Shown here: one piece after another, positions 1 through 336 of the stretch | Layout: every line of letters starts with the position of its first letter | Numbering within the stretch: position 1 is the first letter of the stretch | Sequence record: K02751.1 | Direction: 5' to 3' (one strand) | Length of the DNA stretch: 336 bases | DNA from: a phage | Program-made: the position numbers and the translations under genes | Notes under the pieces: model-generated | The model's database searches: none | What the model saw: only the letters and a program-made list of their open reading frames with translations | What the model was told of the DNA's origin: nothing

Positions 1-83
1 TTAAGTTGATGCAGATCAATTAATACGATACCTGCGTCATAATTGGTGGTTTGATGGCCTCCACGCACGTTGTGATATGTAGA

Positions 84-98
84 TGATAATCATTATCA
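84..98. repeat. 15-bp palindrome TGATAAT-C-ATTATCA (7-bp arms, 1-nt centre)
   Basis: Seen directly: 84-90 TGATAAT is the reverse complement of 92-98 ATTATCA. GATGATAATCATTATC (82-97) resembles the Fur-box consensus GATAATGATAATCATTATC. Function not established. Confidence 0.6.
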
Positions 99-104
99 CT
101 TTAC

Positions 105-111
105 GGGTCCT
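105..111 (+). promoter_or_regulatory. cosQ-like element (GGGTCCT), packaging termination signal upstream of cosN
   Basis: GGGTCCT lies about 20-30 bp upstream of the cohesive-end start, where cosQ sits in lambda. The exact cosQ coordinates are from recall, not verified. Confidence 0.55.
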
Positions 112-130
112 TTCCGGTGATCCGACAGGT

Positions 131-142
131 GGGCGGCGACCT
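131..142. other. cosN core: 12-nt cohesive-end sequence GGGCGGCGACCT (terminase nicking site)
   Basis: Exact match to the lambda 5' single-stranded cohesive end. Flanked by CGCGGGTTTTCGCTATTTATG as at the lambda left end. The 4 bp immediately upstream differ from the lambda reference (see findings). Confidence 0.9.
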
Positions 143-178
143 CGCGGGTTTTCGCTATTTATGAAAATTTTCCGGTTT

Positions 179-194
179 AAGGCGTTTCCGTTCT
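179..194 (+). promoter_or_regulatory. cosB R3, gpNu1 (terminase small subunit) binding element
   Basis: AAGGCGTTTCCGTTCT contains the CGTTTCC core and matches R1 (281-296) at 12 of 16 positions, same orientation. The position about 50-65 bp from the cohesive end fits lambda R3. Confidence 0.65.
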
Positions 195-204
195 TCTTCG
201 TCAT

Positions 205-231
205 AACTTAATGTTTTTATTTAAAATACCC
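205..231. promoter_or_regulatory. AT-rich bendable segment at the position of the cosB IHF site I1
   Basis: AACTTAATGTTTTTATTTAAAATAC is AT-rich with T- and A-tracts and lies between R3 and R2, where IHF site I1 sits in lambda. I could not place an exact IHF consensus match by eye, so the boundaries are approximate. Confidence 0.45.
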
Positions 232-238
232 TCTGAAA

Positions 239-254
239 AGAAAGGAAACGACAG
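239..254 (-). promoter_or_regulatory. cosB R2, gpNu1 binding element (inverted relative to R1 and R3)
   Basis: AGAAAGGAAACGACAG is the exact reverse complement of 281-296. It contains GGAAACG, the reverse complement of the CGTTTCC core. Confidence 0.7.
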
Positions 255-280: not shown

Positions 281-296
281 CTGTCGTTTCCTTTCT
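281..296 (+). promoter_or_regulatory. cosB R1, gpNu1 binding element
   Basis: CTGTCGTTTCCTTTCT contains the CGTTTCC core and forms a perfect 16-bp inverted repeat with 239-254. It lies about 25 bp upstream of the Nu1 start codon, as in lambda. Confidence 0.7.
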
Positions 297-320: not shown

Positions 321-336
321 ATGGAAGTCAACAAAA
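321..336 (+). CDS. Nu1: 5' end of the terminase small subunit gene (gpNu1); CDS continues beyond the window
   Basis: ATG GAA GTC AAC AAA A encodes M-E-V-N-K, the recalled N-terminus of lambda gpNu1 (MEVNKKQLADIFG…). It sits 190 nt after the cohesive-end start, matching the lambda Nu1 start at genome position 191. A weak GGA Shine-Dalgarno-like motif lies about 7 nt upstream (311-313). Confidence 0.85.

Follow-up and report, generated by a model that had tools for sequence, protein, structure and literature searches.

A phage lambda cos sequence with two clean deletions, one beside the cosN nick, that probably derives from handling of the J02459 reference text

Few DNA packaging signals have been characterised as well as the cos site of phage lambda, which is known in detail. 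The 336-nt stretch of DNA analysed here (the window) contains this element, with four bases (TACG) missing immediately 5' of the point at which terminase nicks the top strand. The locus therefore raises the question of whether this loss is a biological allele of cos or a product of the way in which the sequence was handled.

Identity of the window and its differences from lambda

The whole 336-nt window was identified as the phage lambda cos region by BLAST against 50,697 phage records, and its 336 bases aligned to 349 bases of the lambda-type records, so that more than four bases had to be missing. When J02459 positions 48359..48502 and 1..206 (350 nt) were joined by script and two blocks were deleted, the window was rebuilt exactly; 336/336 retained bases were identical to J02459, with zero substitutions. 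The deleted blocks were TACG (48499-48502; between window positions 130 and 131) and ATTATTTGAC (48404-48413; between positions 45 and 46), 14 bases in total, and the script found one placement only for each, which excludes both microhomology and alignment ambiguity. Positions 131-336 were 100% identical to J02459/NC_001416 1-206, including a G at lambda position 138. Aligned to DE3, a K-12 lambda lysogen, and phage 4W, the window showed three differences: the 10-bp gap between 45 and 46, the 4-bp gap between 130 and 131, and the extra G at 268. Whole-window BLAST of phages, plasmids, and E. coli genomes returned nothing closer than wild-type lambda. The excerpt as it stood before deletion was exactly 350 nt long (144 from the right end and 206 from the left end of J02459), and this round length hints that the bases were removed after an excerpt of fixed length had been cut. 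The features of the window are as follows.

Positions 1-45, plus strand: lambda non-coding right-arm DNA, identical to J02459 48359-48403, where J02459 has no annotated feature.
Positions 45-46, no strand: second deletion, where the 10 bp ATTATTTGAC (J02459 48404-48413) are absent; single placement in the alignments.
Positions 105-111, plus strand: cosQ heptamer GGGTCCT, the packaging termination signal, intact (J02459 48473-48479; role from PMC4669245, PMC4856287).
Positions 127-134, no strand: junction AGGT/GGGC, with TACG (J02459 48499-48502) absent between 130 and 131, from the alignment and the script.
Positions 129-144, no strand: remnant of the 16-bp cosN, with left flank GT at 129-130 (wild type CG), GGGCGGCGACCT at 131-142, and right flank CG at 143-144.
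Positions 148-180, plus strand: I2, a bent, AT-rich stretch that separates cosN from cosB (lambda bp ~18-50; extent from PMC4856287), identical to J02459.
Positions 180-195, plus strand: cosB R3, a TerS (gpNu1) binding site (lambda bp 50-65; coordinates from PMC9026076).
Positions 209-221, minus strand: candidate IHF site I1, between R3 and R2, a one-mismatch match to WATCAANNNNTTR that is at chance level when taken alone.
Positions 239-254, minus strand: cosB R2, AGAAAGGAAACGACAG, in the opposite orientation to R1; the two belong to an inverted repeat whose arms span 239-263 and 272-296.
Position 268, plus strand: extra G, J02459 position 138 (GAGGC vs GAGC), between R2 and R1; a marker of the reference text.
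Positions 281-296, plus strand: cosB R1, CTGTCGTTTCCTTTCT, from the repeat search.
Positions 321-336, plus strand: start of nu1 (terminase small subunit), ATG GAA GTC AAC AAA = MEVNK (J02459 191-206; CDS 191..736 in J02459; also in the DE3 and Lambda records).

Like the cos of J02459/NC_001416, the window holds cosQ, the 12-bp cohesive end, I2, R3, the candidate I1, R2, R1, and the nu1 start in the same order, and it shares G138. The 12-bp cohesive-end sequence is identical to J02459 1-12, and R3, R2, and R1 stand at the correct distance from cosN, followed by nu1 (ATG at 321, lambda bp 191). Within R3, the repeat core CGTTTCCGTTCT (183-194) pairs with both R1 and R2, which have an identical 16-bp sequence in common (PMC9026076), and the spacing of R3 to the bottom-strand nick is unchanged. 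The candidate I1 is identical in sequence to lambda, and its position fits the I1 described in PMC4669245. In comparison to J02459, the absence of TACG turns the left CG flank into GT and brings cosQ 4 bp nearer the nick, and the absence of ATTATTTGAC affects DNA upstream of the functional cos. The short open reading frames of the window were unremarkable and no further hidden feature was found; a search for RNA elements in Rfam gave only sub-threshold hairpin matches, due to the R2/R1 inverted repeat.

The junction itself, within which window positions 117-148 read GGTGATCCGACAGGT followed directly by GGGCGGCGACCTCGCGGG, has TCCGACAGGT joined to GGGCGGCGACCT at positions 121-142, whereas every lambda-type record has CCGACAGGTTACG joined to GGGCGGCGACCT. 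A reading made earlier from the sequence only had given a lambda junction with TACG and placed a loss of these bases at 127-134, just 5' of the top-strand nick. The junction that it gave proved correct, since the lambda-type records do contain TACG, and alignment across the circular lambda junction placed the 4-bp gap (48499-48502) inside that bracket and in that position relative to the nick. The assignment of these bases to the right half-site has to be amended: although the right genome end terminates in them, in the standard cos orientation they flank the left half of cosN, beside bp 1-6. The TACG deletion is one of three differences from typical lambda; the same reading missed the 10-bp deletion and the diagnostic G.

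The second deletion lies 85 nt upstream of the nick, that is, 85 nt inside the linear end. It falls outside the 238-bp segment 48446-182 that has been used as a complete cos (PMC4856287), and the wild-type sequence at 48404-48413 gave no sigma-70-like promoter match. Exact searches with the 26-mer across the 45/46 junction returned 0 matches in IMG/VR, GTDB genomes, and JGI metagenomes, and the 26-mer across the TACG-deletion junction likewise returned 0 matches in these three collections.

Conservation of the cosN flank and predicted behaviour of the altered site

Published work counts as cosN the 12 bp together with 2 bp on either flank; ten of its positions show rotational symmetry (PMC9026076), and the flanking CG is highly conserved (PMC4669245). 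We collected 120 natural cos sites from IMG/VR with a bait limited to bases 1-25 of the left end, which left the upstream side unselected. ACG occupied positions -3 to -1 in 120/120 sites, representing 40/40 distinct upstream contexts, and T occupied -4 in all but one (119/120), whereas positions -5 to -12 varied freely (16 different 12-mers). The start of cosQ lay 30 nt before the nick in 119/120 sites and 29 nt before it in the remaining one, compared with 26 nt in the window. The -4 to -1 flank of the window now reads A, G, G, T, so that all four positions are changed; the CG flank 3' of the bottom-strand nick is in place. Of the features that define a functional lambda-type cos, the window thus lacks two, the left CG flank and the usual spacing of cosQ from the nick. 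The survey is a small positive result in its own right: the bases at -4 to -1 and the cosQ-nick spacing are essentially invariant, and this conservation indicates that TACG is functionally important for cos. The earlier suggestion that its loss would impair or shift terminase cutting is thus backed by the 120-site survey and by the published work on cos (PMC9026076, PMC4669245).

In that work the bottom strand is nicked by a TerL anchored at R3 and the top strand by a second TerL (PMC9026076). The left half of cosN is the mutation-sensitive half, the right half being helped by cosB anchoring (PMC4669245); termination needs both cosQ and cosN (PMC4669245, PMC4856287); and 3-bp changes in the spacing between cosN and cosB are severe (PMC9026076). 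If the DNA of the window existed, cosB and its distance to the bottom-strand nick would be untouched, so that assembly of TerS and IHF should proceed and the bottom-strand nick by the anchored TerL would be expected to fall between bp 12 and 13 as normal. The second, unanchored TerL would meet GT in place of the invariant CG flank, and the left half-site, needed for the top-strand nick, would be without its symmetric C(-2)G(-1). At termination the register of cosQ would also be wrong, with the heptamer displaced towards the nick by 4 bp, or about 137 degrees of helix. Together, the lost CG flank and the displaced cosQ would be expected to result in poor top-strand nicking at initiation and poor cosQ-dependent cutting at termination, and we predict from the sequence that such a cos would be defective in both respects. 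Any molecules cut at the same phosphodiester bond would keep normal 12-nt cohesive ends.

The cos mutants of Feiss and Becker (the cos2 cosN deletion, cosN G2C, and altered cosN-cosB spacing) resemble the window in having lesions of cosN or of spacing, with reduced nicking and packaging (PMC4669245, PMC9026076). Their spacing mutants lie on the cosB side, whereas the change in the window is on the cosQ side, and for cos2 the description goes no further than "cosN deletion phage" (PMC4669245). In the literature searched, neither loss of the 4 bp that precede the top-strand nick nor a change of the cosQ-cosN spacing was described. The TACG deletion, if real, would be a clean probe of left-half cosN recognition by the unanchored TerL.

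As a separate observation, a Fur-box-like 19-mer, GTAGATGATAATCATTATC, is located at window positions 79-97, 8 nt upstream of cosQ, and agrees at 16/19 positions with the consensus GATAATGATAATCATTATC. The score of this candidate site was reached by 0/200 shuffles. Fur-like 19-mers (<=4 mismatches), in two sequence variants, were present 49-56 nt 5' of the nick in ~94/120 natural lambda-type cos loci.

The extra G as a probable marker of text derived from J02459

The G at position 138 was found only in J02459, NC_001416, O276, OR474059, and OR974322, and the other lambda-type phage records are without it. It was likewise absent from 30/30 lambda-like loci of IMG/VR, from DE3 and the K-12 lysogens, and from all 4,459 matching E. 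coli records, the best of which (99.5% over 205 nt) has the state without the G. Five physically sequenced copies of cos also lack it (5/5; three circularised lambda "plasmids" and two BAC/fosmid-vector "plasmids"). The base is likely an error or a private base of the 1982 reference and, as such, a useful marker of text derived from it. It may be a known error in J02459; a search of the literature found no published documentation of the position-138 discrepancy. Further J02459-specific bases probably include a compensating 1-bp difference near 14266 and the cI857/ind1/Sam7 positions. The window thus combines GAGGC at this position with otherwise exact identity to J02459/NC_001416. The argument for derivation from the reference hangs on this one diagnostic base, which is common to three other records that are perhaps not independent of J02459; OR474059 is flagged UNVERIFIED, and the right end of OR974322 is junk.

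The circularised copies deserve description on their own account. Three "plasmids" of 48,499-48,502 bp, NZ_CP104294.1, NZ_CP068597.1, and NZ_CP082339.1 (from Stenotrophomonas, Paenibacillus, and Salmonella), consist of circularised lambda control DNA, and errors at the cos junction were seen in 2/3 of them. Two others, CP036489.1 and NZ_CP104070.1, deposited for Rahnella and Alicyclobacillus, have the cos-loxP junction of a BAC/fosmid vector together with an IncFIA replicon. All five are probably contaminants or spike-ins rather than native plasmids. NZ_CP104294.1 and NZ_CP082339.1 resemble the window in having small lesions exactly where the cos ends meet (GGG lost in the former, a G changed to T in the latter), and these lesions show that the junction is prone to artefacts. 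They differ from the window in that both are without G138 and without the internal 10-bp deletion, and in that their lesions are inside the cohesive end rather than in its 5' flank.

Origin of the deletions

Our preferred interpretation, to which we assign a probability of about 70%, is that the window is J02459/NC_001416 text in which the right end was joined to the left and from which two clean blocks were removed by sequence handling, and that the loss of TACG is not a biological allele. The reference-only G and the internal 10-bp deletion are unexplained by an end-joining step, and together they point to reference-derived text that was edited or mishandled; it is from these features, the exact derivation from J02459, and the absence of either junction elsewhere that we infer a non-biological origin. 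The handling could have been an in-silico edit, a joining or transcription error, or an artefact of a reference-guided consensus, and accidental and deliberate editing may both fit. Neither deletion is aligned to the 10-letter blocks of the flat-file format, which, within an artefactual origin, counts against the simple dropping of a block. The 4-bp loss stops exactly at the last base of the linear record, a coincidence expected at ~1 in 350 if the deletion were randomly placed.

A real laboratory construct or mutant, either lambda or a cos plasmid, might also carry the TACG deletion, for example as a packaging-dead cos whose sequence was written down by editing the J02459 text. We regard this as unlikely, even though a mutant reported in that manner would look identical to the window and the editing of J02459 text would account for the reference-only G. 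The deletion falls exactly at the nick site and takes out the best-conserved flanking bases, a choice that a designer intent on killing cosN might make. Helper phages with a defective cos are known, among them the cosN-deletion phage cos2 (PMC4669245), and synthetic cos inserts have been ordered from reference coordinates (the pOER plasmids, PMC4856287). Against such a construct, the literature searched described neither the TACG deletion nor the 48404-48413 deletion, phage and plasmid collections held no matching record, and it is hard to see what a designer would gain from the 10-bp deletion outside the functional cos. An artefact of de novo assembly or circularisation, in which an assembler joined the ends of linear lambda imperfectly and dropped four terminal bases, would explain why the lesion adjoins the linear terminus (the last four bases, 48499-48502), and it has precedents in CP104294 (GGG missing at the same junction), CP082339 (G-to-T inside the cohesive end), and OR974322 (corrupted right end). 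We nevertheless judge it distinctly improbable: de novo assemblies of lambda are without G138, as seen in the physical copies, DE3, and the lysogens, whereas the window has the G, and the lesions are not confined to the terminus, one of them being well inside the end. Among the three origins that the sequence-only reading had left open, an artefact is accordingly the best supported, but not as the simple circularisation slip that it proposed.

The third of those origins, a lambdoid prophage in which cos is a natural variant or a decaying remnant, is very improbable. Lambda-like cos sites are present in 4,557/5,426 E. coli genomes, and small deletions do accumulate in cryptic prophages; yet natural prophage cos regions typically differ by 4-10%, whereas the window has no substitution relative to J02459 over 336 nt, the reference-only G included, and its state is shared by 0/4,459 matching E. 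coli records. Neither junction was present in E. coli records, IMG/VR contigs, GTDB genomes, or metagenome contigs. It would be exceptional for the window to represent a cos that still works, with a terminase that accepts the new flank or moves its top-strand nick and so yields a viable phage with an altered right end. The TerL endonuclease is not highly sequence-specific and is positioned largely by cosB anchoring (PMC9026076), and both the 12-bp cohesive sequence and cosB are intact. These points are set against the invariance of ACG at -3 to -1 (120/120) and of the cosQ offset (119/120), the mutation sensitivity of the left half of cosN (PMC4669245), and the absence of any phage with the junction of the window from every collection searched. 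That the deletion is a true allele, in a lambda derivative that propagates or was built on purpose and whose terminase would cut without the TACG/CG left flank and with cosQ 4 bp closer, or at a shifted top-strand nick, is highly doubtful. If true, such a still-functional allele would contradict the strict natural conservation and would be moderately interesting to packaging specialists.

The evidence points to a copy of the reference that was altered in handling or editing, and the window has little biological import. Its bearing is on sequence records: where the ends of a linear phage record have been joined, the junction sequence is unreliable, and a single reference-specific base such as G138 can expose copied text, as distinct from independent data.

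Several specific sources were examined and rejected. A dropped flat-file block was rejected because the deletions are off the 10-letter blocks in both J02459 and window coordinates, and a microhomology-mediated deletion because both deletions have a single possible placement. An origin from a BAC, fosmid, or cosmid vector was rejected because CP036489 and CP104070 diverge after ATGGAAGTC into vector and are without G138, whereas the window continues into nu1. OR974322 (48,496 bp) was rejected as the source because its right end is different junk. That record, OR974322.1, came from cloacal swabs of chickens and is named "Escherichia phage Lambda isolate P6/2022/SA"; over 48200-48496 it ends in GGTGAAAAAAAAGG rather than in the lambda right end, and, with G138 and this odd right end, looks like a reference-guided assembly of lambda control DNA.
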